DNA of 64,000 bases from Bdellovibrionota bacterium (lineage in GTDB: Bacteria; Bdellovibrionota_C; UBA2361; CAKMMH01), in NCBI GenBank assembly GCA_034180415.1, contig JAXFOK010000018.1, positions 12,539-76,538 of the forward strand. The letters run 5' to 3'. The notes beneath the pieces are model-generated. The model was not told where the DNA came from and searched no databases. It saw only the letters and a list, made by a program, of their open reading frames with translations. This document shows, piece by piece, positions 3,155-63,469 of this stretch; position 1 is the stretch's first letter, and every line of letters starts with the position of its first letter. Made by a program: the position numbers and the translations under genes.

Positions 3155-4321
3155 GTGTCACCTATAGAACTTCAGGATAGAGACAAATGGATAAGCGTTC
3201 TTACTGCAATTCCACCGTCTTCAATTTGGACTTACGCTCAGTATTTCCTAATAACTGAGCTGGCTGACAGAAAATGGGAAGCCGAAGAAATATACAGGAA
3301 GCAAAAAAACGAAAGTGAACAAAACCTGGAATCGTTAGATGATTTGACCAAAACTTGGGCAAAAATCATGCTCTTATTGTCCGGGTTGTTCATAATCATT
3401 CTAAAGATCTTCATGCTTGCTTTCTTCTATATCGGCTTCATCAATAAGAATTGCAAAAAGTACATCACTCAAATTGAGAAATCACTCGAGGAAAAAGCTG
3501 ATTGTGCCTGTAAGTCAAAAAAGAATCTAAGAGTAAAAACCGTAGATGAAATTTCGGCTGAAAAAGGAATAACACACTTTGAGGATATGGTTGATAACCT
3601 ATTTAAAAATAGTGCAGATAATATCTACATTAAGGCTTATATAAACAACTTTCTCTCGAGTGTGATGGCAATCGGTCAACGTTGGGCAGTGGCAGAATTA
3701 AACTGCCGAGCAACAGAAAGCTCGCAGGATAGAGCAGAAGCACTATGGCGAGGCGGATTTATGATTAGAGCCTTTGGCTTTGGTACAATTAAGCTTATTC
3801 GTCAGCTTCTAGCGATACTTGCGATTGGTATGGCTGTGCCATTTCTGATCAATCTGTTTGCAAAAACTCCTAACTATTCCATTATAACAAACCTTGCCCA
3901 AGGCATTGGTTGGACGGCGATTCTCTGGGCAATAACGCTTGCGCTTACTCTGTTTTTAAATGATAGGCGTATGGCGAAAATTTGGAAAAGAGCGAAGCTT
4001 GCTTCTCTTTTAGCCCAAAAAACGAGATCGGAAGAATTAATTAAGGTTTTTAATGAGGTGAAAAATGCGATACAAAATTGCTTAACTCCACTCATTAATA
4101 GTATCGAGGATTCCATTTTGAAACTTCTAATTCTCGATAACATGAGACAGATTGATGAACTTATAAAAAGGGAGGAAAGTAAGCTTAAAAACTTTGATAG
4201 CGAAATAGCGATGATAAAACAGAACTTAAATCTAATAGAGAAGATTAAGCAAATCCTAGATACATCGTCGCAAGGAGATGCCATCGAACAACTTACAGAT
4301 GGTATCACAGATGCTTTCTAG
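3155..4321 (+). CDS. membrane protein of unknown function (GTG start; about 4 TM helices plus a C-terminal coiled-coil); GC-elevated, likely horizontally acquired
   Basis: 388-aa ORF whose GC is visibly higher than the flanks. Hydrophobic segments at about aa 70-95 and 205-260, and a heptad-like C-terminus. Isolated between an operon end and a terminator. Confidence 0.65.
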   Translation: MSPIELQDRDKWISVLTAIPPSSIWTYAQYFLITELADRKWEAEEIYRKQKNESEQNLESLDDLTKTWAKIMLLLSGLFIIILKIFMLAFFYIGFINKNCKKYITQIEKSLEEKADCACKSKKNLRVKTVDEISAEKGITHFEDMVDNLFKNSADNIYIKAYINNFLSSVMAIGQRWAVAELNCRATESSQDRAEALWRGGFMIRAFGFGTIKLIRQLLAILAIGMAVPFLINLFAKTPNYSIITNLAQGIGWTAILWAITLALTLFLNDRRMAKIWKRAKLASLLAQKTRSEELIKVFNEVKNAIQNCLTPLINSIEDSILKLLILDNMRQIDELIKREESKLKNFDSEIAMIKQNLNLIEKIKQILDTSSQGDAIEQLTDGITDAF

Positions 4322-7129: not shown

Positions 7130-7202
7130 GACCCTATCGTCTAGTGGTCTAGGACGCTAGCCTCTCACGCTGGAGACACGAGTTCGAACCTCGTTAGGGT
7201 CA
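7130..7202 (+). tRNA. tRNA-Glu (anticodon CUC)
   Basis: Cloverleaf folds by eye. Acceptor GACCCTA/TAGGGTC, D-arm GTCT..GGAC, anticodon stem CTAGC/GCTGG with loop CTCTCAC (U33, anticodon CTC, A37), T-arm ACGAG-TTCGAAC-CTCGT, discriminator A. Architecture is very close to canonical tRNA-Glu. CCA is not encoded. Confidence 0.85.
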
Positions 7203-28781: not shown

Positions 28782-29075
28782 TTAGAAATGAGAAAACTCG
28801 CCGTCTGTATACGCAATACCATCTGGTGTCATACATGAGGAGAACATCTCACTTATACCGTAAGGATGCGCAACTTCGACTATCCCTAAATTTGATTCCG
28901 AATCAGGCATCCATACCTTTCCATGAAACGGGTCATCAAAGTCAAGAAACATTACATCTGACTCTTTCCCCTGCTTTTCGGAAAACTTATCATATAGATA
29001 GCTTCCTTTAGCTAAAGTTTCTAACGAACAAACTTTAACCTCAAAAAGATCAAGATCGACTTTCAAAAAACTCAC
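28782..29075 (-). CDS. hypothetical acidic protein (97 aa), GC-elevated
   Basis: ORF with protein-like composition in a locally GC-richer patch; no recognisable domain. Confidence 0.4.
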   Translation of the reverse strand: MSFLKVDLDLFEVKVCSLETLAKGSYLYDKFSEKQGKESDVMFLDFDDPFHGKVWMPDSESNLGIVEVAHPYGISEMFSSCMTPDGIAYTDGEFSHF

Positions 29076-30301: not shown

Positions 30302-31561
30302 ATGCGAATAAAAAGAGATTTATATCTAAATAAACTAATAAGGCACAAGCATAATGGATTCATAAAAATCATTAGTGGCGTTAGGCGCTCAGGAAAGTCA
30401 TTTTTACTTTTTGAATTATTCAAAGAACACTTATTAGAATCAGGCATTAAAAATGATCATATAATTTCGATTGCATTAGATAACAGAAAGTACGTTAAGC
30501 TTCAAGATCCCGATCTTTGTTATGAATACATAGAATCAAATATTAAAGATAATGATATGTATTATCTTTTTATAGATGAAGTGCAACTTATGAATAATTT
30601 TGAAAGTGTTTTAAATGGTTGCCTTTATATTAAAAACCTTGATGTCTATGTTACTGGCAGTAACTCTAAGTTTTTAACTACCGATATAGTAACTGAATTT
30701 AGAGGAAGAGGCGATGAAATTAAAATCCATCCTCTTAGTTTTTCAGAATATTATAGTGCTGTAAATGGTAGCTGGAACAAAGCTCTTGATGAATATTTAA
30801 CTTATGGCGGGATGCCGGCCTTATTTTCATATGATACACATACCGAAAAAGAAGAATATTTAAAAAGATTATTTTATGAAACTTACATTAAAGATTTAGT
30901 AGAGAGAAATAAAATAAAGAATGAAATCGAGTTTAGTGAACTTTTAGATGTTCTCGCATCAAATATTGGAACACTTACTAACCCTAAAAAACTCTCTGAT
31001 ACTTTTTCTAGTGTACAAAATAACAAAACCATTTCAGAACCAACTATAAAACTTTACTTATCATATCTTTCAAATGCTTTTCTTATAAATAAAGTTTTAC
31101 GATACGATATAAAAGGGAAAAAATATTTAAACACTCCATTTAAATGCTACTTTATAGACACGGGACTTCGCAATGCAAGATTAAACTTCAGACAATTTGA
31201 ACCTACACACTTAATAGAAAATGTCATATATAATGAACTTTGCATAATGGGATATCAAGTTGATGTTGGAAATATTGAAATTAGAGAACAAAACCAAGAC
31301 AAATCATATTCTAAGAAACAACTTGAAGTGGATTTTGTTGTAAATGCTGGAAGTAAACAATACTATATCCAATCTGCTTATATGATGCCAACATTAGAAA
31401 AGCAACAACAAGAAGAAAAATCATTACTACATATTGATAATTCATTTAAAAAGATAATTATTGTAAACGAAGATATTATTCCAAGGCACCAAGAAAACGG
31501 GATTACAATTTTAGGCCTTAAAGATTTTTTGTTAAACAAGAATAGTCTTGATTTAGCGTGA
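30302..31561 (+). CDS. AAA+ superfamily ATPase of the DUF4143 type (predicted ATP-binding protein)
   Basis: 419 aa; Walker A GVRRSGKS, Walker B LFIDEVQ, and the conserved C-terminal region typical of DUF4143 ATPases. Paralog at 59711..60970. Confidence 0.8.
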   Translation: MRIKRDLYLNKLIRHKHNGFIKIISGVRRSGKSFLLFELFKEHLLESGIKNDHIISIALDNRKYVKLQDPDLCYEYIESNIKDNDMYYLFIDEVQLMNNFESVLNGCLYIKNLDVYVTGSNSKFLTTDIVTEFRGRGDEIKIHPLSFSEYYSAVNGSWNKALDEYLTYGGMPALFSYDTHTEKEEYLKRLFYETYIKDLVERNKIKNEIEFSELLDVLASNIGTLTNPKKLSDTFSSVQNNKTISEPTIKLYLSYLSNAFLINKVLRYDIKGKKYLNTPFKCYFIDTGLRNARLNFRQFEPTHLIENVIYNELCIMGYQVDVGNIEIREQNQDKSYSKKQLEVDFVVNAGSKQYYIQSAYMMPTLEKQQQEEKSLLHIDNSFKKIIIVNEDIIPRHQENGITILGLKDFLLNKNSLDLA

Positions 31562-31686: not shown

Positions 31687-33672
31687 CTAGATAGCCTTCT
31701 TTATAGCATCTTTAACTGCGTTAATATCAGCTTTACTTAATGTGATTCCATTAACTTCAACATTAACGCCCTCTTCCCATTTAGGAAGGAAGAATGTACC
31801 TTCAACATAAACTTTATCTTGTAATTTTTCTGAATCAATAAAGTTTAGAACTTGAGAAAGTAAGTTTGTTTCTTCTTTTGTTCTACCTGCAAGAGAAACT
31901 TTAACTGAAACTTTTCCCTCTTTCTTTCCTGTGTTAAAGATATCTACAGAGCTTGTGCTTGTAGGCTGAGAATGATAATAAGTGTGAAGTAAATGATGAG
32001 CTTTTTCTCCACCAATCTCGCCTAAGAACTTCTCATAACAAGCCTTAATATCAGGGTTATCTTGAGAGTTTCTTAATTCCATACTCTTATCATTATTATA
32101 AATCCCAGCACTTCTTTTTTGTCTATAATCAAAGTCTGTGTTTCTGATTTGTCCTGCACCATTTATGCAACCTCCAGGACATGCCATAACTTCAATTAAG
32201 TCATAGTTACATTTTCCAGCACGAATTTCATCGCAAACTTTCTTAGCATTTGCAAGGCCACTAACAAGAGCTAAGCGAATTGTCTTTCCTGCAACAGTAT
32301 ACTGTGCAGTCCTAATTCCCTCTTGTCCTCTAACTTCTACAAAGTCACTATTTTGAAGTTTCTCACCTGTTAATTTCTCTACTGCAAACCTAAGTGCTGC
32401 TTCTGTAACACCACCTGTTACACCAAAAATCACACCACCACCTGAGAAATCACCAAATGGCTTATCAAATTTATCAGGCGCTACTTTCTTAAAATTAATC
32501 CCCGCGCCCTCAATCATTTGAGCAAGTTCTTGAGTTGTTAAAACTACATCTGTGTCACGAATTCCATCATGAGTAAAACGCTCTAATGCTGCTTCGTGTT
32601 TCTTTGCAGTACATGGCATAATTGCAACATTAAAGATATCTTTCTTCTCTACTCCAAGCTCTCCTGGAAGCGCATCCTTAATTACGCCACCAAACATTTG
32701 CATAGGGGAACGACAAGATGATAAATTATCCTTTAAATCAGGATAGAAAAGCTCAACATAACGAACCCACGCTGGGCAACATGATGTAAATTGAGGAAGT
32801 TTCTCTCCCTTAATTACACGATTAACAAACTCTGTTGCTTCTTCTACTATTGTTAAATCTGCACTAAATGATGTGTCAAACACTAAATCAAACCCTAGCA
32901 TTCTTAAACAAGCAGCAATCTTATTTGTTAAAACCTCCCCAGGTTCCTCGCCAAATGCTTCCCCTAGAGATACTCTAACAGCTGGTGCCATATGAACTAC
33001 TGTCTTTTTAGTAGGGTCATTTAATGCAGCCATTACTTTTTCAATTTCATTCTTAGGTAAGATTGCACCTGTTGGACAAACTGCAGCACAACGACCGCAA
33101 AGCACACAATCAACTTCTGATAGTGGTTTATCAAGACATGGTGTTACATACGCATTTGATCCTCTTTTTGCAAAATCTAAAACGCCAATTCCTTGCACTT
33201 CATTACAAGCTCTAACGCAGTTTCCGCAAAGTACACATTTACTTGGGTCTCTTGTCAAAGAATCAGATGAATTATCAATAGGTCTTGGTTTTCTTGTTGG
33301 TTTAAATCTTACATTTTCAACACCTATTACTCTAGTTAATTTTTGAAGCTCGCAAGTGTTATTCTTATCGCATGTTGGACAAGACTTATTGTGGTCTGCA
33401 AGTATTAACTCTAAAGCAACCTTTCTTAGCTTTCTAATTTCATCTGTGTTTGTTAAAACTTTCATACCATCTTGTGGCTTTGTTGTACAACTTGTAACAA
33501 TACGTCCGTCAATATCAACAAGACATAAACGACACGCTCCATATACGCTTAAATCTGCATGATTACAAAATGTAGGAATATCAATTCCTGCTTTTTTTGC
33601 AAGCTCTAATATACTACGCTCACCATTAATAGGAATCTGTTTGCCATTTATTGTAATTATTCCATCACTCAT
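31687..33672 (-). CDS. hydA: [FeFe]-hydrogenase catalytic (H-cluster) subunit
   Basis: 661 aa; N-terminal 2Fe-2S and 4Fe-4S ferredoxin domains; H-cluster motifs TSCCPAW, MPCTAKKHEA and EVMACPGGCINGAGQ. Confidence 0.9.
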   Translation of the reverse strand: MSDGIITINGKQIPINGERSILELAKKAGIDIPTFCNHADLSVYGACRLCLVDIDGRIVTSCTTKPQDGMKVLTNTDEIRKLRKVALELILADHNKSCPTCDKNNTCELQKLTRVIGVENVRFKPTRKPRPIDNSSDSLTRDPSKCVLCGNCVRACNEVQGIGVLDFAKRGSNAYVTPCLDKPLSEVDCVLCGRCAAVCPTGAILPKNEIEKVMAALNDPTKKTVVHMAPAVRVSLGEAFGEEPGEVLTNKIAACLRMLGFDLVFDTSFSADLTIVEEATEFVNRVIKGEKLPQFTSCCPAWVRYVELFYPDLKDNLSSCRSPMQMFGGVIKDALPGELGVEKKDIFNVAIMPCTAKKHEAALERFTHDGIRDTDVVLTTQELAQMIEGAGINFKKVAPDKFDKPFGDFSGGGVIFGVTGGVTEAALRFAVEKLTGEKLQNSDFVEVRGQEGIRTAQYTVAGKTIRLALVSGLANAKKVCDEIRAGKCNYDLIEVMACPGGCINGAGQIRNTDFDYRQKRSAGIYNNDKSMELRNSQDNPDIKACYEKFLGEIGGEKAHHLLHTYYHSQPTSTSSVDIFNTGKKEGKVSVKVSLAGRTKEETNLLSQVLNFIDSEKLQDKVYVEGTFFLPKWEEGVNVEVNGITLSKADINAVKDAIKKAI

Positions 33673-33714
33673 TTAAAAATCTCCTTGTTCTTTTTTTCTT
33701 TTTATATTTTTTTA

Positions 33715-33753
33715 TCATTATAAAGATTAAATACTTCTTATAATCTTTATAAT
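33715..33753. promoter_or_regulatory. perfect 14-bp inverted repeat CATTATAAAGATTA-N9-TAATCTTTATAATG inside the hydrogenase operon, between the NuoF-like and catalytic subunit genes
   Basis: Read directly from the 130-bp intercistronic spacer. Confidence 0.4.
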
Positions 33754-33802
33754 GATATTTTTAAGCTTACTTAAAATTTTTTACCTTTTAAGCAGATACT
33801 TT

Positions 33803-35722
33803 TTAAGCTGATACACCTGAAATTGCACCAAACTTACAAGTTCTTACACAAGAGCCACAACGAATACACTTATCTTTATCGATAGAGTGTGGCTGTTTAA
33901 TTGTGCCAGAAATTGCACCTACTGGGCACTGTTTAGCGCACGCTGTGCATCCTTTGCATTTCTCTTTGTCAATTACAGGTGTTGAAAGTTTAGGGCAACG
34001 ATTAGTTGGACAACGCTTATTAAACACGTGCTCATTTACTTCATCTCTAAAATAACGAAGTGTAGCAAGCACTGGGTTTGGAGCTGTCTTTCCTAATCCA
34101 CAAAGCGAGCTTATTCTTACAGATTTTGCAAGTTCTTCTAATGTTTCGATAGTTTCTGCTGTTGCAGTACCATCAATAATTTCATCTAAAAGATTTAGCA
34201 TCTGCTTTGTACCTTCTCTACAAGGAATACATTTTCCACAAGATTCATTTTGAATAAATTGCATAAAGAATCTCGCAACACTTACCATACAAGTATTCTT
34301 GTTCATTACAACAAGTCCACCAGATCCTACCATTGCACCAACTTTTGGAAGTGAGTCAAAGTCTAATGGCATATCTAAGTGTTCTTCTGTCAAACAACCT
34401 CCTGAAGGTCCACCAATTTGAACAGTCTTAAATCCATCTGGCCAAGGGTTACCGTTATCATCAATAACACCACCACCGATATCAAAAATAATCTTTCTTA
34501 ATGTTGTTCCCATTGGAACTTCAATAAGACCTGTGTTAACAACGTGTCCTGTTAGTGCAAAAGTCTTAGTACCTGGAGAAGTTTCTGTTCCCATTTTTCT
34601 AAATTCTTCTACACCGTTTCTTACGATAAATGGAACTGTTGCTAAAGTTTCCACATTGTTAATTGTAGTAGGAGCTTTCCAAAGTCCAGATTGTGCTGGG
34701 AATGGTGGTTTTGGGCGTGGCATACCACGATGTCCTTCAACTGATGCCATAAGTGCAGTTTCTTCACCACAAACAAACGCACCTGCTCCTTCCATTACGT
34801 GAAGATGTAATTTTAAGCCTGTACCAAAAACATTATCGCCTAAGATACCTTCTTTTTCTGCATCTTGTACAGCACGAGTAATACGTTTAACTGCAAGTGG
34901 ATATTCAGCACGAACATAAAAATACCCTTCGCTAGCCCCTATTGCACGAGCTGCAATCATCATACCTTCGATAACTGCATGAGGATTTCCTTCCATAACA
35001 CTTCTATCCATGAAAGCACCTGGGTCTCCCTCATCTGCATTACATACGATATATTTAAGGTCAGCTTGAACAACTCTTGTTAAATCCCATTTTTTACCAG
35101 TTGGGAAGCCAGCTCCTCCTCTACCTCTTAATCCAGAGTCAAGAATCATTTTACAAACTGCCTCTGGTTCCATATCTAAATAAGCTTTGGCAGCTGCAGC
35201 GTAACCACCGTGAGAAATATATTCTTCAACATTCTCTGGGTCTAAACTTCCGCATTCATTTAATGCAACACGATGTTGCTTTGAATAGAAATCTATTTCC
35301 TTTTTACCTTTACAATGCTTTCCTGTATTATGGTCAACATATAAAAGTCTTTCTATAACTTCACCATGAAGAATAGTTTTTTCAACTATTTCTTTTGCAT
35401 CTTCTGGTTTAACTTTTACATATAAAATTCCATCAGGCTCAATAGATAAAAGAGGTCCCATTTGACAGAATCCTTGGCAACCACTTTTTGACATCCATAC
35501 ACCTTTTTCATTTAACTCTTTTTCTTTTTGAAGCTCTACAACAATATCAAGTCCATTTGCTTTTAATTCTTTACAAACTTCATCATAAACTTTCATTGAG
35601 CCACCAGCCATACAACCAGTACCTGCACAAAGTATGATTCTGCGTTTTACATTTTGCTGAGCTTTAATAAAATTGTCTTTAATTTCCGCTAATTTTGCAG
35701 CATTAATACATTCATTACTCAT
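33803..35722 (-). CDS. hydB: NuoF-like flavoprotein (NADH-binding, FMN, Fe-S) subunit of the multimeric [FeFe]-hydrogenase
   Basis: 639 aa; N-terminal thioredoxin-like 2Fe-2S domain, GRGGAGFPTG FMN/NADH motif, C-terminal CGKCIPCREG and 2x[4Fe-4S] CxxCxxCxxxC. Confidence 0.9.
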   Translation of the reverse strand: MSNECINAAKLAEIKDNFIKAQQNVKRRIILCAGTGCMAGGSMKVYDEVCKELKANGLDIVVELQKEKELNEKGVWMSKSGCQGFCQMGPLLSIEPDGILYVKVKPEDAKEIVEKTILHGEVIERLLYVDHNTGKHCKGKKEIDFYSKQHRVALNECGSLDPENVEEYISHGGYAAAAKAYLDMEPEAVCKMILDSGLRGRGGAGFPTGKKWDLTRVVQADLKYIVCNADEGDPGAFMDRSVMEGNPHAVIEGMMIAARAIGASEGYFYVRAEYPLAVKRITRAVQDAEKEGILGDNVFGTGLKLHLHVMEGAGAFVCGEETALMASVEGHRGMPRPKPPFPAQSGLWKAPTTINNVETLATVPFIVRNGVEEFRKMGTETSPGTKTFALTGHVVNTGLIEVPMGTTLRKIIFDIGGGVIDDNGNPWPDGFKTVQIGGPSGGCLTEEHLDMPLDFDSLPKVGAMVGSGGLVVMNKNTCMVSVARFFMQFIQNESCGKCIPCREGTKQMLNLLDEIIDGTATAETIETLEELAKSVRISSLCGLGKTAPNPVLATLRYFRDEVNEHVFNKRCPTNRCPKLSTPVIDKEKCKGCTACAKQCPVGAISGTIKQPHSIDKDKCIRCGSCVRTCKFGAISGVSA

Positions 35723-36233
35723 TTCCTGCCTCCTTTTTAAGAATTTTATCTAGAAGTGCTTCTACTTTAGCAGGAGACATTTGACCATGAACTTCTCCAT
35801 CAATAACAACAACAGGTGCAAGTCCACATGCACCTAAGCAAGAAACTATTTCAATAGAAAATAATAAATCATCTGATGTATTCTTCCCTTCTTGCATATT
35901 TAATTTTTTTCTTATTGCATTAATAATAGGAATTGATTGCTTCACATGACATGCAGTTCCATTACAACAACGAATTAAATGTTTTCCTTTCGGTTCTAGT
36001 GTGAAATGTGAATAAAATGTTGCAACACCGTAAATACGAGAAGCAGGTATTTTTATTGAATTTGCAACAAACTCTATTATTTCCTTAGGAAGATAATGGT
36101 ATACGTCTTGTATTCTCTGTAAAATTGGGATCAATTTTTCTTCTCTATATTCGAATTCCTCTAATATTTTACAGATACTCTCAAATTGTTGAGTACGGGT
36201 TAATACTTCCCCAGTCTGAGTTCCATCAGTCAT
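35715..36233 (-). CDS. hydC: NuoE-like [2Fe-2S] thioredoxin-like ferredoxin subunit of the hydrogenase
   Basis: 172 aa; ..LIRCCNGTACH....CLGACGLAPVV.. Cys motif; 8-bp overlap with the downstream NuoF-like gene. Confidence 0.85.
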   Translation of the reverse strand: MTDGTQTGEVLTRTQQFESICKILEEFEYREEKLIPILQRIQDVYHYLPKEIIEFVANSIKIPASRIYGVATFYSHFTLEPKGKHLIRCCNGTACHVKQSIPIINAIRKKLNMQEGKNTSDDLLFSIEIVSCLGACGLAPVVVIDGEVHGQMSPAKVEALLDKILKKEAGNE

Positions 36234-36573
36234 GATTCTTTCTCCGATATATATGTTAATGTACTAAAATATTTAAATTTATTAACGAAAAACCTTAGTA
36301 AAATCTTTTAAGACTCTAGCTTTTAAAAAATAAAAAATTGAAAGGTAAAAATATCCTATTTCAAATTTTATAACTAAATTTAAAAAGAAAATTAAAAGAA
36401 ATTACCAACAATTTTAAACTCTAAGAATTTTAACAGCCCCCCCACGATCCGTCAAGATAGCTAAGGAAACGCGCCAAATTCCTTCTTATGCTTACAAGCT
36501 AGTACGTGTATTTTATTTTAAAATTCACTAACGAAATAGTGTTTGAATTATATTGAATTTTTCATTAAAATTT

Positions 36574-37779
36574 TTATTTTTTCTTTAACATATCATTTAA
36601 CACTTCACTTAAATTATTTTTGTATATTTCATTAAATTTAACGTCTATATCATATTTAGTTTTAACATCTTTTAAACTTCTAAAAAACTCTAGCAACTTT
36701 CTCTTTGGATAATTTTCTATTATATATTTTATTAAAAACCCACCACCGATTTTCTTAATAGTAACACTCGCACTGTTATCCAATAAATTCAAAATTTTTT
36801 CGTTATAATCCATACCTGTTAATCCGCCAGTTAGGTATGTAACGATTCCATGTACTACCCAAGAATCGACTAAATTATTATTTTTGAAATATTGTATTAT
36901 TAAATTTTTAGTAGCAAATGTCGTAACATATTTAAAGTAATTATCCAATTTATAGTAGCTCTTTCTTGGATTAAACAAATAAAGTGAAGATTGCATTTCA
37001 GAATAATTGTTATTTGCTGAAAGTTCCTCTAAGTATCCCTCTATTAAAACTTTATTATTACTGAAATCGTACTCAAAAAACTCTTCTAGTAATTCTTTAC
37101 ATTCATTAACTCTTTTATAAACTTCTGATTTAAAAGAATTTATTAAATTATTTTTCCCGTTTATTATTACTTCATTACTTTTCAAAAGTTCTTTTAGTAT
37201 ATCTCTCAAAGATTTACCATAAATTTTAATACAGCATTTATTAGTTTCATTTTGAGATTTTATTTTACTTAATAAATCTAAAAATTGTAGAAAATTATCT
37301 TTACTATACTGTTCAATTAAATATTTAATAAATATTCCTGCACCATCATAATAAAGTCTAATATCCGGATTCTTTTCAAAAAGCTTAAACATATTTATTG
37401 ATATATTACAATTTTCAACTTGATTAGATAAATATACTGATAATCCTTCGCAAAGCCACTTAGGTATAAAATGATTTAAATCTGTATAACAATTTAAAAA
37501 CGCATGCGCAATTTCATGTTTTAAAAGTTTAATGTATTCTTTTTCATTATATTCATTTGCTATACTTTCATAACTACAAATATAGACATTATTATTATCT
37601 GTTAGCCCTACAGCAAAATTACTTAATCCATTATTCAATCTATAAAATGAGTTTTTATCCAATATGTGAATAAATATCATATTATCTGTTATTTTAACTC
37701 GAAAAAAATCATTATATTCATCGATAATTTTGGCTATAATGCCATCTAAATTTACATCATTAGATACGTGAAAAATCAT
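36574..37779 (-). CDS. putative zincin-like metallopeptidase with tandem duplicated MA-like domains (first HEIAH..WLCEGLSVYLS, second degenerate)
   Basis: Start moved to the ATG at 37779, which has a perfect AAGGAG RBS. HExxH followed about 20 aa later by WLxEGLxxYLS, a pattern I associate with peptidase MA-like domains. The second half repeats the fold without HExxH. Paralog at 41962..42627. Confidence 0.55.
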   Translation of the reverse strand: MIFHVSNDVNLDGIIAKIIDEYNDFFRVKITDNMIFIHILDKNSFYRLNNGLSNFAVGLTDNNNVYICSYESIANEYNEKEYIKLLKHEIAHAFLNCYTDLNHFIPKWLCEGLSVYLSNQVENCNISINMFKLFEKNPDIRLYYDGAGIFIKYLIEQYSKDNFLQFLDLLSKIKSQNETNKCCIKIYGKSLRDILKELLKSNEVIINGKNNLINSFKSEVYKRVNECKELLEEFFEYDFSNNKVLIEGYLEELSANNNYSEMQSSLYLFNPRKSYYKLDNYFKYVTTFATKNLIIQYFKNNNLVDSWVVHGIVTYLTGGLTGMDYNEKILNLLDNSASVTIKKIGGGFLIKYIIENYPKRKLLEFFRSLKDVKTKYDIDVKFNEIYKNNLSEVLNDMLKKK

Positions 37780-37929
37780 CTTTATTATATCTCCTTGTAT
37801 AGAAAAAGGCACACATAAGAATAAAATTCTTACATATGCCCTATTAGGATAACATACTCCTACTGCTTCCATCATAAAGGAAAGAAAGCAAAACCTTAAT
37901 GGATTACAACTTAGTTTTAGCTATCCTTA

Positions 37930-38154
37930 TTAATCCATGCAAGTGTCGCAAGGCGGCTTATGACAAATGTAACAACATTCTTCACAAAGACCGTGACAAA
38001 CGCAATTACTCGTCTGAGAGTGATTGTTAGCGGAAAATTCGACATCACAACCATCATCGACGCATTGGTTGGAACTCTCAAAAGATAAATTTTTGCTACA
38101 AGCATTAAAGTCATCATCAAAGATGTCCAACACATGAGGATCGAGCGCAATCAT
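37930..38154 (-). CDS. Cys-rich acidic small peptide (74 aa; 11 Cys, C-terminal ..CVCHGLCEECCYICHKPPCDTCMD); candidate RiPP precursor
   Basis: Lies 5 bp downstream of a PqqD-like gene. This frame is conserved in the paralogous remnant at 42901..43019 (MIALDPHVLDIFDDDF.. vs MIVLNSCVIDVFDGSF..). The overlapping 77-aa ORF 37917..38150 was rejected. Confidence 0.5.
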   Translation of the reverse strand: MIALDPHVLDIFDDDFNACSKNLSFESSNQCVDDGCDVEFSANNHSQTSNCVCHGLCEECCYICHKPPCDTCMD

Positions 38155-38158
38155 AGCA

Positions 38159-38540
38159 CTATTCCTTATTAGTAGAGGTTAATGAAACAACATTACTATT
38201 AAGAAGTCTTAAAAAGAACTTCTTATATTGGGTAACAGTTAAGTCGTTAGTAGATACTAACTTTTTTTCAATGCAACTTTCAACTAATTTGTATCCGTCA
38301 ACATCTAAAAAAAGCCAACCACCATTTTCGCTTGGCATTACCGCTCGAAATCTTCCTTTCAAGTTATTACCTTTTGAAAATCAAGAAAACAATCATTAGG
38401 AATTTCTTCTTTTTGAATTTTTATCTTCACATTTTCCTTAAACAACTCGAAAGCCAAATCTTTTGATAAGACATCACACAGAGGATCAAGACCATCAATT
38501 AATCCTGTATTATCCTCTCCCCGATATCGACACCCTCCCC
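38159..38540 (-). pseudogene. PqqD-like RiPP recognition element (RRE) protein, frameshifted relative to the paralog at 43006..43404
   Basis: Two frames give ..GLIDGLDPLCDVLSKDLAFELFKENVKIKIQKEEIPNDCFLDFQKVIT* and (TTG)KGRFRAVMPSENGGWLFLDVDGYKLVESC..FFLRLLNSNVVSL. These align colinearly with the intact paralog, and no ATG precedes the N-terminal part. A shorter product from the internal ATG (MPSENGG..) remains possible. Confidence 0.5.
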
Positions 38541-38546
38541 TACAAT

Positions 38547-39050
38547 TTACAAAGAGCTTGCAGTATTAAAAATATCATGTACATTAAGCTTCGTCGTTAC
38601 CATATTGCATGTAACATCAAAACCATTATTTAATGCACATTTAATCCCGTCAACTGCCTTTTTGAAACCACCTTTCACACCGCTTACCAATTCGTACACT
38701 TCCTCGCATGAACCCATAAACGATGTTAAGATTCTCCTTAAGCCAAGTTCTTTAAGTTCTCTTGCAATATGATCATTAATATATGTCAAATTTGAATTCA
38801 TCGACATATTAATATGATTTTCTTTTGCAAGAATCAAAAGGTGCTTCACAATTTTGTAATTAAGAAGCGGCTCACCACCAGTAATCACGATACTTTTAAT
38901 TTTATGCTTTTTGATTTCACTAAAAAGCTTATTAGCAGTATATAAAGTCATATGACTTGAGTGAACATTATCTGAATAATCCTTATCAAGCCAATCTCCA
39001 CGCCAAAAATTGTAACAATGTTTGCATTTAATATTACAAACACCGATAGC
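38547..39050 (-). pseudogene. radical SAM enzyme remnant (N-terminal core only; SPASM/C-terminal half missing)
   Basis: The track ORF MTLYTANKLF..ITGGEPLL.. is in frame with an upstream CNIKCKHCYNFW (CxxxCxxC). A TAA lies immediately 5' of the motif (..SVQL*AIGVCNIKC..) with no start codon. The protein ends after about 160 aa of rSAM core and overlaps the PqqD-like gene. Confidence 0.65.
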
Positions 39051-39422
39051 TTACAATTGAACACTAAGGGGTACAGTTAATGATTTATATATCTTATTAA
39101 CCCTTTCATTAATTAAAGGTAAGGATAAGAAAACATCTACTCATATTTTTTGTAACCATTTATAAGCGAGAAATATTTCTACGCATAAAAAGGGGCTGAA
39201 TGAAAAAACTAAATTTTATATTTCTTTAAAATCACACACTCTCTAATATATGTACCGAAAATTAATTAAAAAAAATGTTTTTATTTTGGTAAAAAATTTT
39301 AAATTTATTTTTATAAATATTTTCTCTTGGAGTTTATAGCATCTTAATTCAAAATCCTCTACAGAAACAACTTGTAAAAAATTCAAGTGACATTTTGGAT
39401 AAAATCTAACTAAAGATTTACG

Positions 39423-40139
39423 TCAATCAATGTTATTTACCACATCATATATTGCGTACTCTTTATTATAAATTTTAGCCCATTCCCTATCTCCAAAGCT
39501 AAAGTGCCACCACTCTCCATTAAATGGAGCAAATTCATGACGAATCATAAGCTTTCTTAGCATCAATCTATTTTCAAATTGTTCTTTCGTAATATAGGAA
39601 TTTTTTACAGGTAAATATTCTTCTTTATCAAAATCACCAATTTCACATCCCATATCTAATAATGTATCACCAATTTTTATAGATAAATCGATAGCCCCGC
39701 CTGTTGTATGCCCCGCAACTTTTGGATAAGCAATCATTAAATGAGTTTTTTCAATTTGTTCATCTTGAGATAATAAAGGAAACTTTGCTTTTATATCGTT
39801 AAAAACTTTTTTAAAATTTTCTTCCTGTATTTTTGGATGTCTATACACATTTGAAACCACTAATGAAGCATCTTTATTTATATTTAGTAGTTCTTTGCTT
39901 ATTTCATCTAATTTTTCTGCAATTTCTTTTCTTCCATAGAAAAAAAGATTTCTTATTTCATTATTGTTATCACTAATTGAAAGATACTTTGGAATTCTAA
40001 ATTCAATATTAGGGTTTACCATATCTGGTAAATAGACTAACTCTTTAGAGCTTTCATTAACATTAATAATTACTAAATCAGAAACTAAACTAAAAGTTTC
40101 GAAATCATTTAGTACATAATCATATAATTTATTATCCAT
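39423..40139 (-). CDS. VanX/DdpX-like D-alanyl-D-alanine dipeptidase (peptidase M15D)
   Basis: 238 aa; motifs YRHPKIQ, AGHTTGGAIDLSI (SxHxxGxAxDL) and EWWHF characteristic of VanX-type zinc D,D-dipeptidases. Confidence 0.8.
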   Translation of the reverse strand: MDNKLYDYVLNDFETFSLVSDLVIINVNESSKELVYLPDMVNPNIEFRIPKYLSISDNNNEIRNLFFYGRKEIAEKLDEISKELLNINKDASLVVSNVYRHPKIQEENFKKVFNDIKAKFPLLSQDEQIEKTHLMIAYPKVAGHTTGGAIDLSIKIGDTLLDMGCEIGDFDKEEYLPVKNSYITKEQFENRLMLRKLMIRHEFAPFNGEWWHFSFGDREWAKIYNKEYAIYDVVNNID

Positions 40140-40255
40140 AGTCTCTATAAATTAAATAAAAAAATGCAAGCCACTAGGATAGTATAATTTAATGGTTTTC
40201 ATATGTCACGATTTCTACCAATAAAGCAGAAGATACAACATTTAGAGAAGATCTC

Positions 40256-40849
40256 TTAGTGAAGAGACCTCCGAACCATGAAAATCCGCCTATCTCTTAC
40301 GGGAGCATCGCCAAGTCTTCGCTGACTGACGTATTCTTTCGTCCCGTCAAGGAGCGAGAATCCAGATTTGAGGAACAGGTTCTTCGATGCGACATTTTTT
40401 TCTGTCGTACGAACAATCATGTTCGTATCAGGATACTCTTCCTTAAGCTTGTTAACAAGACAAGCAGCGAACCCATTACCACGCCACTCGGGAGCAGTAA
40501 GGATTTCTGCGACATAAAGATAATTTTGAGGCTCATCAATATTATCTTTAATCGCCTTTAAAACCTTCTCTTCATGTTCCAGGTTGTATGCCACCAAATA
40601 GCTATAAACTTGCCCGGTGGACACATCAACAAGAGCAAAGATCGAAGAATTAGGGGTGGACCACTTTTCCTTTGCAAGTTTCATGACATCGTCATGAGTA
40701 AACTTTTCTTGGTAAGGTGGCGCACCAAAACAAAGAACATACAGGGAGGTATACTGCGATGACGAATCACCGAAAATGGCCTCAGAAATCTTGACGATTT
40801 TCACGGCCTCCCAATCCAAGCACGACATCTTTTGGGTTTGTCGTTTCAT
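40256..40849 (-). CDS. GNAT-family N-acetyltransferase (GC-elevated)
   Basis: 197 aa; acetyl-CoA-binding motif ..VAEILTAPEWRGNGFAACLV.. and ..EKNVASKNLFLKSGF..; coding GC clearly above the background. Confidence 0.75.
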   Translation of the reverse strand: MKRQTQKMSCLDWEAVKIVKISEAIFGDSSSQYTSLYVLCFGAPPYQEKFTHDDVMKLAKEKWSTPNSSIFALVDVSTGQVYSYLVAYNLEHEEKVLKAIKDNIDEPQNYLYVAEILTAPEWRGNGFAACLVNKLKEEYPDTNMIVRTTEKNVASKNLFLKSGFSLLDGTKEYVSQRRLGDAPVRDRRIFMVRRSLH

Positions 40850-40924
40850 GATAAAACCTCATATGTTTTATAATGGGAGTTAACGACTAGAAAATCAAAA
40901 GAACACTTTTCCCTTTAAAACTTT

Positions 40925-41788
40925 CTAATCATCTAAGAACAATTCTCCTTTAGCTATCACATCTACGATGCCTCCAATTGAGACACTTTCAACATACAAA
41001 GCATCAGAAGATAACCTAACTTCTAACTCGATTGATTTCTTAGACGGTTGATATATCCGTTCCTTAAAATCTCTCTTGTTATTCAACGCGCTTACTATAC
41101 CAAATGCTGCGGTTCCTGAACCGCATGCTGTTTCATAATATGTACTATCGGTATCTCGTACCCAAACGACAGGATTAATAAAAACCCCATTATCATTTTT
41201 TTGTACAAATATTAATCCTACTGCACTTTCATTTTGTAATTCCAAACTATCTCTCACATGTTTTGAGAATTCGACATAATTATCTTTTCTGAACTTAAAG
41301 TGTGGTTCATTCAAAATAACGTGAGTAATACCACTAAGATAAGTAACAAAAACTTTGTAGCCATCTAAAAGTTTTTCTTCAACATGATTTTTAGTTGAAA
41401 GATAAACTTTAGTATTTATTTTACTCCCGTCCCTAAAACATTCACCTTTAACTTTTTCATTAACCCCAGAAACAGATAAATAGCATTCCCAATGATTTTC
41501 ACCAATAGACTTTAATGATTTTGAATCTTCAAAGAGTAAAAGCGCCAAGACGCTTCTTGTAGCATTTCCACAAAACTCTCCACCCATCATATCTAGTCTT
41601 GGAGTACCCTCTTCAAGATAACTTACGACTCCGACCTGCTCTCCACCAAGATGCAATGGGTCTAGAATCTTATTTGAAATCAAAGCACGGTATCTAGCAT
41701 CCATTGAATCTTTATTTTTAATGAGAACCGTCGTGTTTCCACTAGGGCTCATTTTATAAAAGCTGTACGTAGTCATAACAAAAAACAT
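40925..41788 (-). CDS. DapF-family PLP-independent amino-acid epimerase (diaminopimelate-epimerase-like, two catalytic Cys)
   Basis: 287 aa; ..SGNTTVLI.. (GNDF-like), ..GGEFCGNATRS.. (QCGNGARC-like) and ..YETACGSGTAAFGI.. (ETxACGSGAxA-like) give both DapF active-site cysteines. Confidence 0.7.
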   Translation of the reverse strand: MFFVMTTYSFYKMSPSGNTTVLIKNKDSMDARYRALISNKILDPLHLGGEQVGVVSYLEEGTPRLDMMGGEFCGNATRSVLALLLFEDSKSLKSIGENHWECYLSVSGVNEKVKGECFRDGSKINTKVYLSTKNHVEEKLLDGYKVFVTYLSGITHVILNEPHFKFRKDNYVEFSKHVRDSLELQNESAVGLIFVQKNDNGVFINPVVWVRDTDSTYYETACGSGTAAFGIVSALNNKRDFKERIYQPSKKSIELEVRLSSDALYVESVSIGGIVDVIAKGELFLDD

Positions 41789-41961
41789 CCTTTCTTTTAC
41801 AAGAAATATGATCTTCTATAGGAGGTATCGAATTTAAATTTTAAAAGTTGCTTAAAATCGATAAAAATTTTCAAAAATTGATATTTAAAGATATTTTTAT
41901 TAAAAAATGATAAAGAAAATTACATGGTTACATGTAATATATTTCTGATGACTTTTTAATT

Positions 41962-42627
41962 TTACTTATTATTTTCGCCTAATATTTCATTTAAAACTTC
42001 TTTAATATCTTTATTGTAATGTTTCATAAATATAATACTTACTTCATTGCTACTCTTAAGATTTCTTAACTCATTGAAAAATTCTAAAAATTTTTTATTA
42101 CCATAAGTTTCTATAAGATGTTTTACAAAGATTCCCCCACCTTAATAAATTACATTTGGTAAAATATTATCATTAAATAATGTTTCCAAATCTTTACAAA
42201 CTTCGCCACTTATCATCTGTCCTGATAAATATCTTGCTAGTCCTTCATGCAACCAATTTGGAACGTACTTATTAAAATTAACATACATATACGCATATAC
42301 ATGTACTATTTCATGTTTAATTAATTTTTTATATTCGATATCGTTATATATATTTTTTATATCATCATGATTACAGATAAAAATAATATTAGAACGAGGG
42401 CAAGCAAACGCTACGACATAATCTTCCTTAATACTTTTAAATTCATCAAATATTTCTTTTTTCATTGAAAAAACGCAAACACTAAATTCATCATTAGGAA
42501 TATTAAAAAAAACTGAATATTCTTTAGATGTTTCTTCTATACATTTATTAAGTTCTATATCATTATTTGGAAAAATATTATAAAGCATACTATCTCTCAT
42601 TAAAAAAGAGCAGGGACAAAAAATCAT
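41962..42627 (-). pseudogene. single-domain paralog of the MA-like metallopeptidase, interrupted by a frameshift/stop at about 42142
   Basis: The track ORF (..LIKHEIVHVYAYMYVNFNKYVPNWLHEGLARYLSG..) stops at 42142. The next frame continues with ..GGGIFVKHLIETYGNKKFLEFFNELRNLK..NEILGENNK*, which matches the C-terminal part of 36574..37779. The first codons lie inside a terminator hairpin. Confidence 0.55.
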
Positions 42628-42635
42628 CCCTGCTC
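42602..42635 (-). terminator. rho-independent terminator on the minus strand (GAGCAGGGA-loop-TCCCTGCTC + T6) between the RRE/peptide module and the peptidase paralog
   Basis: Perfect 9-bp stem followed by TTTTTT on the transcribed strand; the annotated ATG of the peptidase paralog sits in the loop. Confidence 0.5.
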
Positions 42636-42900
42636 AAGCAAGCTGTTATCAAATTTCTAGAAATTTTACTCTGCCTTTAACGACGATAAAAACCTTATTC
42701 ACGGTTTAAGCCTCTTAAGGTGTAACACTGTTTCATTGAGGTTCACCATCAACACAAATTCTTTAGCAAAGTTCAAAGTATTCAAAATTACGGCCCACAT
42801 GGATCTTGCGATCAACAATACTCAAAACTTGCGGATTGATTTCTTTTATCTTAGCACTCCTTATGTTAGAACGATTAACATCACCATTGTAATAGCAAAC

Positions 42901-43019
42901 TCAGTGACAGATATGCCGGTAGCAATTACAACCACAGTAAAATGCATTATGAAATTCTAATTACTAGCTTTAAAGCTACCATCAAACACATCAATAACGC
43001 AAGAGTTAAGTACAATCAT
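42901..43019 (-). pseudogene. remnant of a second Cys-rich precursor-like peptide (broken by a stop and a frameshift)
   Basis: MIVLNSCVIDVFDGSFKASN* then, in the adjacent frame, ..EFHNAFYCGCNCYRHICH*. The N-terminus parallels the leader of the 37930..38154 peptide. It overlaps the PqqD-like gene end by 14 bp. Confidence 0.4.
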
Positions 43020-43404
43020 AACGTTGTTCCTTATGACTAGGGGTTAATGAAACTATATTACTGTTAAGAAGCCTTAAGAAGAACTCCTTATTTTCAGTAA
43101 TTACCTGAGCATTAGTAGACACTAATACTTTTTGCACACACTGTTCTATTAAGTTGTAACCATCAACATTTACAAATAGCGACCTACCATTTTTACCTAG
43201 TATTACAGCACCAAAGTCTTCCTCTCGAGTTACCACTCCTTCAAAATCAAGATAGTAATCATTAGGAATTTCTTCCATATATTTTATCTTAACCTTATTT
43301 TTACTATATAACTCAAGAGAAATATCTTTCGAAGATACCTCAAAAAGCGGATCAAGTCCATCGACTGACTTCTGAAAGCTACCTTTTCCTAAAATAAATA
43401 TCAA
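43006..43404 (-). CDS. PqqD-like RRE protein (intact copy; probable true start at internal ATG 43278, giving about 90 aa)
   Basis: ..DFEGVVTREEDFGAVILGKNGRSLFVNVDGYNLIEQCVQKVLVSTNAQVITENKEFFLRLLNSNIVSL.. fits the PqqD/RRE pattern (V..RE.DGG.LL.n..g..f.LN..G..IW.......T...I......FL..L...GLI). The annotated start is TTG without an SD. Confidence 0.55.
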   Translation of the reverse strand: MIFILGKGSFQKSVDGLDPLFEVSSKDISLELYSKNKVKIKYMEEIPNDYYLDFEGVVTREEDFGAVILGKNGRSLFVNVDGYNLIEQCVQKVLVSTNAQVITENKEFFLRLLNSNIVSLTPSHKEQRYDCT

Positions 43405-43472
43405 ATATTAAAAATAAAAGTTGCTAAATATAATTAATTTATTTTAAAACTAAAATATTGTTTTTATATATT

Positions 43473-44135
43473 TTACTTTATTCTTTCACTAATCTTTTTT
43501 GCTGATATTTTTTGAATATAATTTGGCTCTAAATCTGTAATATTTGATACACTTTGCACATCGTGATTTATATAATATTCTATTAGAATTTTTGATGGTA
43601 AATTTGAATCTGATAAATCTAATAATTCATAATCAAAACTTTTATACTCATCTTCTATTTTATTTATGACAAAAGCTTTAGAATTTTTTTCTTTTAAATA
43701 CTCTTTAATGCTTTCACTTTCTATAAATTCAAGTTTATTTTCTTTTACATTATAAACAAAATAACTACTTTTTCTTATATGTTGGCAAATAAGATCACTT
43801 TCATTTATTGCATCACTATAAATATGCCTTAAAGCTTCTAAAAGTGTAATTTCTGCAACATTAATACTTACACTCATCATTATACCTTCTAAAAAAGCAT
43901 AACCTATCCTAAGCCCTGTAAAAGATCCTGGCCCCTTATTTATAAGAATAGTATTTACATCATTAATACTAAGAGAATTGTCATCTAAGATTTTTTTTAG
44001 TAAACTTGCAAGCTCCTCGTTATTACTACTTTCCCCTTCACCTTTTATACTTGTAATTTCACCGTCTTTATAAAGAGAAATATTTAAGATGCTTCCTGCA
44101 CTATCTATTGCAATTATATTATTTTTACTATTCAT
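43473..44135 (-). CDS. tsaB: tRNA threonylcarbamoyladenosine biosynthesis protein TsaB (YeaZ-like)
   Basis: 220 aa; ..IDSAGSILNISL.. and GPGSFTGLRIG motif. Confidence 0.8.
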   Translation of the reverse strand: MNSKNNIIAIDSAGSILNISLYKDGEITSIKGEGESSNNEELASLLKKILDDNSLSINDVNTILINKGPGSFTGLRIGYAFLEGIMMSVSINVAEITLLEALRHIYSDAINESDLICQHIRKSSYFVYNVKENKLEFIESESIKEYLKEKNSKAFVINKIEDEYKSFDYELLDLSDSNLPSKILIEYYINHDVQSVSNITDLEPNYIQKISAKKISERIK

Positions 44136-62834: not shown

Positions 62835-62919
62835 CAATCGTTTTTAAAAATAAAAAAAAGAACAGACAACATTTTCTAAAAAGTGTCATCTGTTCTCCGT
62901 AATTTTGCTGGATTCAGAA

Positions 62920-63276
62920 TTATTTATGAAATCCAGAGAGTTGCTTTTCGCCAAGTGCTCCTGCTTGCCGCAATTCATGAAAATGCTCAAGTGTTACAAG
63001 AACTATTTCAAAGCTTTTGAGTTTGTTACCGAAGGATTCAATTCGGTCAACATTCTCATACACAAAAAAACCTTCTTGCTTGTCGTTCAGAAAACCTGTC
63101 TTAAGCTTCCCATCAACCTCAATTCCATAAAGCTGAGGGGGCCGTCGACGAAATTTGAAACGTCCATAAAACTTAGGAAACTTGTATTTCCCGTTTTTTG
63201 CTCGAAGCAACAAGACATATTCAATATTAGGTTGATTCTTAAACGAAAGCTTGATAAAACACTTCCGCCTATACAT
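62920..63276 (-). CDS. hypothetical basic protein (118 aa) in a GC-elevated patch
   Basis: Better protein-like composition than the overlapping plus-strand ORF 62905..63291; no domain recognised. Confidence 0.35.
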   Translation of the reverse strand: MYRRKCFIKLSFKNQPNIEYVLLLRAKNGKYKFPKFYGRFKFRRRPPQLYGIEVDGKLKTGFLNDKQEGFFVYENVDRIESFGNKLKSFEIVLVTLEHFHELRQAGALGEKQLSGFHK

Positions 63277-63469
63277 AATGTCCTTTCGTAAAAAATGACT
63301 AAAATTGGCTAAAGTGAAAAACCCCTTTATTCTTTTGTATCACATAATTAAAACTTAATAAAACGTATTTTAAATAAATGTTATAACTTTTAGATTTTTT
63401 TTAGTATTTTCATCCTATTTATGAAAAAAACAAAGTTAGAAGTGTTTAAAATAAGATACATATGAGGGG

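Follow-up and report, generated by a model that had tools for sequence, protein, structure and literature searches.

What do a racemase, an acyltransferase and a VanX-like peptidase do when they are encoded together, and do they serve the peptide genes on either side of them? This question is raised by three consecutive minus-strand genes at positions 39423-41788 of a 64,000-nucleotide stretch of DNA from a Bdellovibrionota bacterium (contig JAXFOK010000018.1 of assembly GCA_034180415.1; the whole stretch is called the window here). They encode a DapF-like racemase, a GNAT-type N-acyltransferase and a VanX-like peptidase of the M15 family, and lie between two modules resembling gene clusters for ribosomally synthesized and post-translationally modified peptides (RiPPs). 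A preliminary description took them for a D-amino-acid peptide tailoring or immunity set, possibly acquired by transfer as a unit. We propose instead, with a probability of about 0.55 for the general model, that they form a conserved chromosomal operon that would control the pool of D- and L-histidine and would be coupled to histidyl-tRNA synthetase (HisRS, encoded by hisS). Homology alone establishes the enzyme classes, namely a two-cysteine racemase with a predicted histidine-type pocket, an acyl-CoA N-acyltransferase and a zinc peptidase; the substrates in the model are predicted ones.

All three open reading frames (ORFs) were found on the minus strand exactly within the limits first described, with intact catalytic motifs and intergenic gaps of 75 and 116 nt. 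None of the three N-termini has an apparent signal peptide on inspection by eye. The proteins are identical to entries MDY6090150-52 of a Bdellovibrionota bacterium metagenome-assembled genome (MAG) and are frequent in metagenome assemblies.

The racemase ORF (40925-41788, minus strand, 287 aa) belongs, by NCBIfam scores and Protein Data Bank (PDB) matches, to the CntK/HisR family of cofactor-independent amino-acid racemases. Its probable start is Met5 at position 41776, giving a protein of 283 aa, as in the NCBI and Logan annotations; this form is MDY6090152.1, and an exact-sequence lookup with the 287-aa ORF returned no record. The best-scoring models were HisR (NF052224, 123.6 bits) and CntK (NF033599, 103.4 bits), with DapF (TIGR00652) at 30.1 bits; all three scores lie under their equivalog cutoffs (400, 300 and 114.65 bits, respectively), and the Pfam DAP_epimerase score of 21.6 bits is below the cutoff of 34.7. 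The nearest solved relatives are structures of the histidine racemase of F. nucleatum (9CR1/9CR6, E 4e-25), followed by S. aureus CntK. The CntK_N domain (PF26317) is annotated on all 120 listed homologues, including one that is 98% identical (P0001), and on the 99%-identical copy in contig L083; a local Pfam scan gave no PF26317 match on the window racemase itself.

Both DapF-type motifs noted previously, ExCGNA and ACGSGT, are present, as MMGGEFCGNA (41561-41590, minus) and YETACGSGT (41111-41137, minus). The two catalytic cysteines that they supply to the pseudo-symmetric DapF fold are common to the entire superfamily and hence do not discriminate within it. By alignment, catalytic Cys73 and Glu71 of the first motif correspond to HisR Cys67 and Glu65, Glu219 and catalytic Cys222 of the second to HisR Glu206 and Cys209, and Glu50 of a third motif, GEQVG (41630-41644, minus), to HisR Glu49 and CntK Glu46. 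Glu49, Glu65 and Glu206 of HisR are proposed, in the papers on HisR and on CntK, to bind imidazole, and the residue roles used here are those of the HisR study (PMC11602996). None of the five residues (Cys73, Cys222, Glu50, Glu71 and Glu219) varies among 20 diverse homologues or among 25 racemases taken from clusters and fusions. In a neighbor-joining tree, the window racemase falls in a clade apart from HisR and from clostridial racemases whose genes adjoin a permease and histidine ammonia-lyase (HutH). The earlier suggestion that the set handles D-amino acids and does not belong to lysine biosynthesis is supported, as the HisR and CntK scores far exceed that of DapF and the closest structures are histidine racemases. 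Neither dap nor lys genes occur among the neighbors within ~10 kb. The racemase is thus placed by its sequence in the CntK/HisR family, as a predicted histidine-racemase-like enzyme rather than a DapF. Plasmids in PLSDB gave racemase matches only of the HisR and CntK types, and no copy of the GNAT.

The GNAT assignment also held. The ORF (40256-40849, minus, 197 aa) matches Pfam Acetyltransf_1 (PF00583) with 30.9 bits against a cutoff of 20.7, and it carries motif A, the acyl-CoA pyrophosphate-binding loop, as WRGNGFA at 40466-40486 (minus; residues R123-G-N-G126-F-A128). In an alignment of members of its subfamily (A2), R123 is nearly invariant, and the G and A of this motif are the majority residues. 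The subfamily is distinct and sparse. Its signature, CFGAPPYQEKF in the window (40700-40732, minus; consensus F..PPY.E.F), has P45 invariant and F41, Y46, E48 and F50 nearly invariant in A2, and RT...N..S and D.RIF are further signatures. The CFGAPPYQEKF stretch, taken from a 6-sequence alignment, served as a search pattern that recovered 10 metagenome loci. A k-mer search gave only 4 relatives; the idea of an orphan protein was dropped once an exhaustive HMMER search returned 111, of which two are near-identical to the query and 109 are remote. The A2 profile matches only the acetyl-CoA core of solved GNATs (Naa30, Naa50, RimI and PAT structures) and resembles N-alpha-acetyltransferases and amino-acid-analogue acetyltransferases. 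The window GNAT itself matches RimI and AblB weakly, and no member of the subfamily attains any equivalog cutoff.

The peptidase ORF (39423-40139, minus, 238 aa; MDY6090150.1) encodes a VanX-like zinc peptidase of the M15 family (PF01427), with a Pfam Peptidase_M15 score of 52.4 bits against a cutoff of 27. The motif AGHTTGGAIDL (39684-39716, minus), which aligns with VanX SSHSRGSAIDL, holds the zinc ligands His144 and Asp151; GEWWHF (39501-39518, minus), aligned with VanX LEWWHY, holds the catalytic Glu209 and the zinc ligand His212. Of the SxHxxGxAxDL and EWWHF motifs described before, HxxGxAxDL and EWWHF are there, but the 'SxH' actually reads 'AGH'. In an alignment of the M15 subfamily (A5), H144, D151, W210, W211, H212 and F213 never vary and E209 rarely does; the same alignment has Arg100 of VYRHP (39834-39848, minus) invariant and Y99 nearly invariant. 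We take Arg100 to correspond to VanX Arg71. An AlphaFold2 model of the peptidase (pLDDT, the predicted local distance difference test score, 94.3) has VanX 1R44 as its top PDB match (E 2e-8, probability 1.00, TM-scores 0.56/0.65). As modeled, the peptidase is clearly related to VanX but diverged, and its scores lie below the equivalog cutoffs for VanX (37.7 against 320 bits), DdpX (PRK10178, 35.1 against 176) and VanXY (13.7 against 250).

The same gene set recurs in ~12 independent loci, most of them on short metagenome contigs without taxonomy; in the more distant cluster-bearing bacteria, contig GC ranges from 30 to 50%. Racemase, GNAT and M15 genes stand in this order in a close relative, where they are flanked by tsaB and nuoE (L084), and in L090 and L097. 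The order M15-racemase-GNAT is found in L094 and, continued by genes for a HAD phosphatase, a nucleoside hydrolase and HisS, in L091-93. Racemase, GNAT and M15 are followed by a HisRS paralogue and HisS in L089, beside an S66 peptidase gene, and in L101, beside a HIT gene. L098 reads GNAT-M15-HisS, with a probable hisS fragment at the contig end, and HisS stands beside GNAT in L095/96. In L100 a racemase-GNAT fusion precedes the M15 gene, with a HisRS-like gene adjoining. Fusions also occur among the 109 remote GNAT relatives. In 19 of them the partner is a racemase of this family, which may come before or after the GNAT domain; in one it is an M15 domain (P0349), and in another a bona fide HisS (P0400; 322.7 bits, cutoff 286.75). 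Because of this conserved gene order and these domain fusions, racemase, GNAT and M15 are a genuine functional unit, as the preliminary description had supposed. The association is specific to a clade rather than general to the CntK_N family, since a scan (tblastn and HMM) of 80 GTDB racemase loci from Desulfovibrionales, Clostridia, Tissierellia and Fusobacterium found no subfamily GNAT and an M15 partner in only two loci, both from Bdellovibrionota.

The recurrence also points to a substrate. Bona fide hisS adjoins the cluster in L088, L089, L091, L095 and L101, and HisRS paralogues adjoin it in L089, L100 and L101; counted together, hisS-type genes occur no more than a few genes away from the cluster in seven independent loci. 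As hisS is usually a single gene among thousands, we judge this adjacency unlikely to be due to chance. Together with the permease and histidine ammonia-lyase neighbors of the clostridial homologues, it supports histidine as the substrate. The HisRS paralogues of L089 (2806-4122) and L101 (6786-8072) are 428-438 aa long and each lie between M15 and the bona fide hisS; they reach neither the hisS nor the hisZ cutoff and lack a recognized anticodon-binding domain, yet GGRYD- and RxxEYY-like motifs are kept.

Not all members of the set are equally constant. Bdellovibrionota relatives include loci with a racemase-M15 pair and no GNAT (L001, L004 and L088) and loci with M15 alone (L086 and L087). 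L090 and L004 come from one Bdellovibrionales species (98-99% nucleotide identity), and L004 lacks exactly the 690-bp GNAT gene, a clean indel between racemase and M15 (L090 1007-1699 versus L004 4265-4294). Since a single species is polymorphic for this indel, GNAT is facultative. With the racemase-M15 pairs also taken into account, it is best read as an optional add-on to a putative racemase and peptidase core. Between the window and L090, amino-acid identity is 42% for GNAT, 39% for the racemase and 39% for M15. As the divergence of GNAT parallels that of its partners, the triad looks old in the Bdellovibrionota phylum, with GNAT probably lost repeatedly. On its GC3, GNAT was at first taken for a foreign gene recently inserted between the members of an ancestral racemase-M15 pair; this was rejected as the simple explanation, given the parallel divergence and the same-species indel.

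Base composition had been cited as consistent with co-transfer of the three genes. The triad span has 34.2% GC, against 27.8-28.0% in the immediate flanks and 30.2% in the whole window, so that the span as a whole is indeed elevated. The elevation is not shared by all three genes. GC content and GC at third codon positions (GC3) are 0.439 and 0.460 for GNAT, 0.346 and 0.257 for the racemase, and 0.272 and 0.167 for M15, against a mean GC3 of 0.205 (s.d. 0.081) over 51 window ORFs and values of ~0.13-0.20 for housekeeping genes. GNAT is thus a strong outlier, the racemase is slightly raised, mostly at both gene ends, and M15 is at background; there is no common composition for the triad, and co-transfer does not follow from it. 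For GNAT, a raised GC3 is confined to the window lineage and L084; six other clusters do not show it. High GC3 is no marker of high expression here, since rpsB is at background, pheS is only moderately raised, and other high-GC3 ORFs of the window have no Pfam match. Such ORFs lie at 3155-4321 (plus, GC3 0.38), 28782-29075 (minus, 0.35) and 62905-63291 (plus, 0.50), and may be foreign or spurious; the last is overlapped by an antisense ORF of about equal length.

We propose the following model for how the three enzymes work together. Free histidine in the cytoplasm is the most likely substrate of the racemase, which would turn either enantiomer into the other. GNAT would use an acyl-CoA to N-acylate the product, most likely by N-alpha-acetylation of D-histidine, so that the reversible racemization would be pulled one way or D-histidine would be neutralized. 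The VanX-like peptidase would cleave an amide before a C-terminal D-residue: either a D-histidine-terminated dipeptide, which would yield D-histidine for the racemase, or N-acyl-D-histidine, which would reverse the GNAT step. The net role may be to salvage D-histidine to L-histidine and to neutralize the rest, keeping histidyl-tRNA charging clean, and this would explain the frequent adjacency and fusion to hisS. We are far less sure of the direction of flux than of this general model.

Several points weigh against this proposal. The racemase is only ~30% identical to HisR and scores below both the HisR and the CntK equivalog cutoffs, so another basic amino acid is possible as substrate. The link to histidine is imported from other loci, as hisS is absent from the 64-kb window. 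M15 could be a plain D-Ala-D-Ala dipeptidase, and the AlphaFold2 model of GNAT, from a 5-sequence alignment of near-identical sequences, has a pLDDT of 49.8. The model does not account for the GC3 anomaly of GNAT, where a copy from a GC-richer relative may have taken the place of the resident gene, or for the HIT, HAD phosphatase, RihC-like nucleoside hydrolase and SLOG neighbors in other loci. Lastly, salvage and acetylation compete for the same D-histidine; the racemase-GNAT fusion is for this reason easier to read as a channel from L-histidine to N-acetyl-D-histidine than as detoxification.

This last point leads to a biosynthetic alternative, which we consider unlikely. N-acetyl-D-histidine or another N-acyl-D-histidine would here be the end product, with a use, for example, as compatible solute or buffer, as metal ligand or as signal; the racemase would make the metabolically inert isomer, GNAT would cap it, and M15 would recycle it as a D-specific amidase. 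The AblA/AblB route to N-acetyl-beta-lysine and the turnover of N-acetyl-L-histidine in fish offer analogies. Racemase-GNAT fusions in both orders are the commonest architecture (19 of 109 representatives) and would fit consecutive steps with an irreversible pull, and one GNAT-M15 fusion exists. There are also weak matches to osmolyte acetyltransferases, to AblB for the window GNAT and to AblB, EctA and NAGGN GNAT for 1-2 A2 members each. However, the pairs of racemase and M15 without GNAT, and the polymorphism of GNAT within one species, are hard to square with a committed biosynthetic step. Neither an exporter nor osmoregulated surroundings were seen, and VanX-type enzymes usually require a free N-terminal amine. 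The literature that we searched does not mention N-acetyl-D-histidine.

A second alternative is immunity, and it is improbable. The cluster would shield HisRS from a histidine-mimicking antimetabolite or from an aminoacyl-nucleoside or -nucleotide toxin: GNAT would acetylate the alpha-amino group of the toxin, the peptidase would cut a carrier peptide or toxic amide, and an extra HisRS would serve as a resistant target. Acetylation of alpha-amino groups has precedents in MccE/RimL, PAT, ArsN1 and the streptothricin and puromycin acetyltransferases, and MccE, MccF and HinT act in microcin C immunity. The top family matches of A2 members do include ArsN1, Sat2/Sat4/STAT and PAT, but none of these for the window GNAT. 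The L089 and L101 operons have duplicate HisRS genes, and suggestive neighbors are found: HIT in L101, an S66 peptidase of the MccF/LdcA type in L089, SLOG in L091 and L094, Sir2 in L095, and the HAD phosphatase and nucleoside hydrolase inside the L091 operon; L100 is situated among integrase and AbiEi genes. In contrast, the apparently intact racemase with its histidine-type pocket would have no role, and we know of no natural toxin of the histidyl-adenylate type. PADLOC gave no meaningful matches, the accessory genes vary between loci with none of them in the window, and the operon sits here in a core-genome context, from tsaB to the hydrogenase genes.

The peptidase could alternatively be an ordinary DdpX/VanX-type D-Ala-D-Ala dipeptidase that, with a broad-specificity racemase, recycles D-amino acids of the cell's own or its prey's peptidoglycan, with GNAT incidental. 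Membership in PF01427, the VanX fold and the origin of the sequence from a Bdellovibrionota MAG are in favor, and a Desulfobaculum racemase homologue is located near the peptidoglycan enzymes YkuD and M99. Against this, M15 scores far under the VanX and DdpX cutoffs, the HisR-like pocket of the racemase is invariant, no ddl, dipeptide transporter or mur genes adjoin the triad, and the recurrent hisS adjacency and GNAT fusions would be left unexplained. We regard this explanation, too, as having little chance of being right.

To evaluate a role in peptide modification, the flanking modules have to be considered. The downstream module (36574-39386, minus) comprises a radical-SAM remnant, a PqqD-like gene, a Cys-rich peptide gene and a gene for an HExxH protein. 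The remnant (38547-38951, reaching ~39065, minus; ORF only 134-169 aa) has CNIKCKHC with a stop three codons upstream, and no SPASM domain. The PqqD-like gene (67-aa ORF, 38159-38362, minus) is split by an in-frame stop. The Cys-rich peptide ORF (37930-38154, minus) has 74 aa and a GC3 of 0.39, and the 433-aa protein at 36574-37875 (minus) has two HExxH peptidase-MA-like halves. The upstream module (42142-43404, minus) is paralogous. Its PqqD-like ORF (43006-43404, minus, 132 aa) is ~60% identical to the downstream copy, its Cys-rich peptide remnant (~42628-43005, minus) is riddled with stops, and its HExxH peptidase ORF (42142-42627, minus, 161 aa) ends at a premature stop, where L083 continues to 208 aa. 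Both modules are decayed, the downstream one apparently so. The L083 contig (99% identical), from an independent assembly, reproduces the arrangement of the window, including the downstream-module truncations.

In L084, neither module is present. The triad there is 93% identical to that of the window in nucleotide sequence, nuoE is 95% identical, and short intergenic gaps separate the genes from tsaB to nuoE; the preliminary description had named the occurrence of the triad in relatives lacking a peptide cluster as evidence against its reading. The cluster stands without these modules in at least 10 further loci, among them L001, L089, L090, L091, L097 and L100. Given their absence from L084 and their decay in the window, the triad does not depend on the modules and is not peculiar to them. 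In L084, tsaB is only 78% identical in nucleotides (66% in amino acids) to that of the window (35498-44076 compared), and this drop relative to the triad hints at recombination, with a breakpoint between the two genes tsaB and racemase. L101 carries at 485-3213 (minus) an intact-looking radical-SAM/SPASM maturase gene (361 aa), a methyltransferase gene and a 46-aa peptide ending CGICS. This radical-SAM protein was examined as a homologue of the window remnant and rejected as unrelated (20% identity, E 0.003), and its genes are divergent to the racemase-GNAT-M15-HisRS operon. The suggestion that the triad introduces, acetylates or trims D-residues for the RiPP-like modules or gives immunity to their products, for which one can cite that it abuts two modules each with a PqqD-like gene, Cys-rich peptide and HExxH peptidase, that L101 likewise has a radical-SAM/SPASM gene and small peptide nearby, and that two A2 members weakly match the RiPP acetyltransferase HaaN, is highly improbable given the module-free loci, the decay in two independent assemblies, the unrelated maturase of L101, the generic nature of the HaaN matches (the window GNAT not being among them) and the action of CntK/HisR enzymes on free amino acids (PMC11602996). 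We conclude that this Bdellovibrionota lineage carries the operon as a native one, with no functional relation to the RiPP-like remnants that flank it.

The proposed histidine operon shares parts with several known systems. F. nucleatum HisR (9CR1/9CR6) has the same DapF-like two-cysteine fold, with the cysteine pair and three glutamates kept, and neither it nor the window racemase is in a metallophore cluster. It differs in sequence, as described above (~30% identity, 123.6 bits against a cutoff of 400, a separate clade), and in gene context, since its conserved neighbors are reported to be pab/anthranilate genes and not GNAT, M15 or hisS. Its physiological role was unknown in 2024, with only a slight growth lag in the knockout and an uninformative gene context (PMC11602996). 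CntK, from the staphylopine cntKLM genes of S. aureus (6JIW), is of the same family, with PF26317 annotated on the homologues, and supplies D-histidine to a dedicated downstream enzyme encoded alongside. The window locus has no adjoining CntL (nicotianamine-synthase-like), CntM (opine dehydrogenase) or Cnt transporter; the partners are GNAT and M15 instead.

With VanX and DdpX, the peptidase shares the VanX fold, the His/Asp/His zinc site, the catalytic glutamate and, presumably, the arginine. VanC-type clusters (VanT racemase, VanXYc and VanC ligase) pair a racemase with an M15 D-specific peptidase, as is the case here. The D-Ala-D-X ligase, VanH, VanRS and dipeptide transporter of Van clusters are absent here, however; no D-Ala-D-Lac/Ser ligase, VanH, VanT or VanRS was found among the ORFs within ~10 kb of M15. 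In addition, VanT is a serine racemase dependent on pyridoxal phosphate, whereas the window racemase is cofactor-independent and of histidine type. Detoxifying N-alpha-acetyltransferases (the yeast D-amino-acid N-acetyltransferase Hpa3, PAT, ArsN1, YncA and MccE/RimL) have the GNAT core with motif A in common with the window protein, and acetylation would keep D- or non-canonical amino acids out of translation. The subfamily profile or its members match RimI/Naa, PAT, ArsN1 and streptothricin acetyltransferases; of these, the window GNAT matches only RimI, and weakly. The subfamily has its own signatures, and racemase, M15 and HisS fusion partners are not reported for the detoxifying enzymes. 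A HisRS gene inside a histidine-handling operon has a precedent in the lactobacillal hdcA-hdcB-hisRS-hdcP locus. That locus works by decarboxylation and antiport, unlike the racemization, acylation and peptidolysis predicted for the present cluster, which has no hisS adjoining here.

The operon is embedded among chromosomal genes. On one side are the core genes tsaB, rseP, cdsA, uppS, frr, pyrH and rpsB; on the other is a HydABC-type electron-bifurcating [FeFe]-hydrogenase (31687-36233, minus), with NuoE-like (35715-36233), NuoF-like (33803-35722) and Fe-only large (31687-33672) subunits. The hydrogenase suggests an anaerobic lifestyle, unusual compared with the classically aerobic Bdellovibrionota predators. 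Neither in the window nor in 13 related loci does an Rfam element such as a T-box or leader precede the cluster, and promoter and terminator scans stayed within what shuffled sequence would give. An AAA_14/DUF4143 ATPase gene at 30302-31561 (plus) is on the strand opposite to its neighbors, and the sole tRNA gene of the window is at 7130-7202 (plus). In other loci, nucleotide-handling or conflict-type genes recur beside the cluster (L091 3400-5928 and 8493-10285; L094 3030-5533; L095 5726-6586; L101 3557-4060). SLOG cluster-4 proteins occur twice, in one case sharing an operon with another copy of the racemase; further neighbors are Shedu SduA_C, Sir2 and a HIT hydrolase, and the HAD phosphatase and RihC-like nucleoside hydrolase genes lie within the operon. 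An Rfam match to the LOOT small RNA (82.6 bits) is located at L091 3203-3321 (minus), a few kb upstream of the cluster.

The enzyme families are all known; their conserved combination and its fusions are new. A literature search on N-acetyl-D-histidine and on combinations of the four enzyme names found no description of the cluster, and the gene context reported for HisR is a different one (PMC11602996). These results have consequences for annotation. Adjacency to RiPP-like genes is no evidence of common function, and the labels 'diaminopimelate epimerase' and 'D-Ala-D-Ala dipeptidase' on such genes should not be taken to mean lysine biosynthesis or vancomycin-type functions. More broadly, there is a clade of racemases whose genes recur beside a dedicated GNAT gene, or are often fused to it, in the company of hisS or a gene for a HisRS paralogue and of one for a VanX-like D-specific peptidase. 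This hints that the handling of D-amino acids is connected with aminoacyl-tRNA synthesis. The question of what D-histidine is for is thereby made tractable by three enzyme assays and one metabolite search. It may be, although we think it rather doubtful, that the cluster together with HisRS polices histidine chirality or histidyl-nucleotide mimics before translation, making or removing D-histidine and acetylating and hydrolyzing its derivatives to spare HisRS from poisoning, or that it makes N-acetyl-D-histidine as a metabolite new to bacteria; if so, this would be the first physiological role for histidine racemases outside metallophore synthesis.

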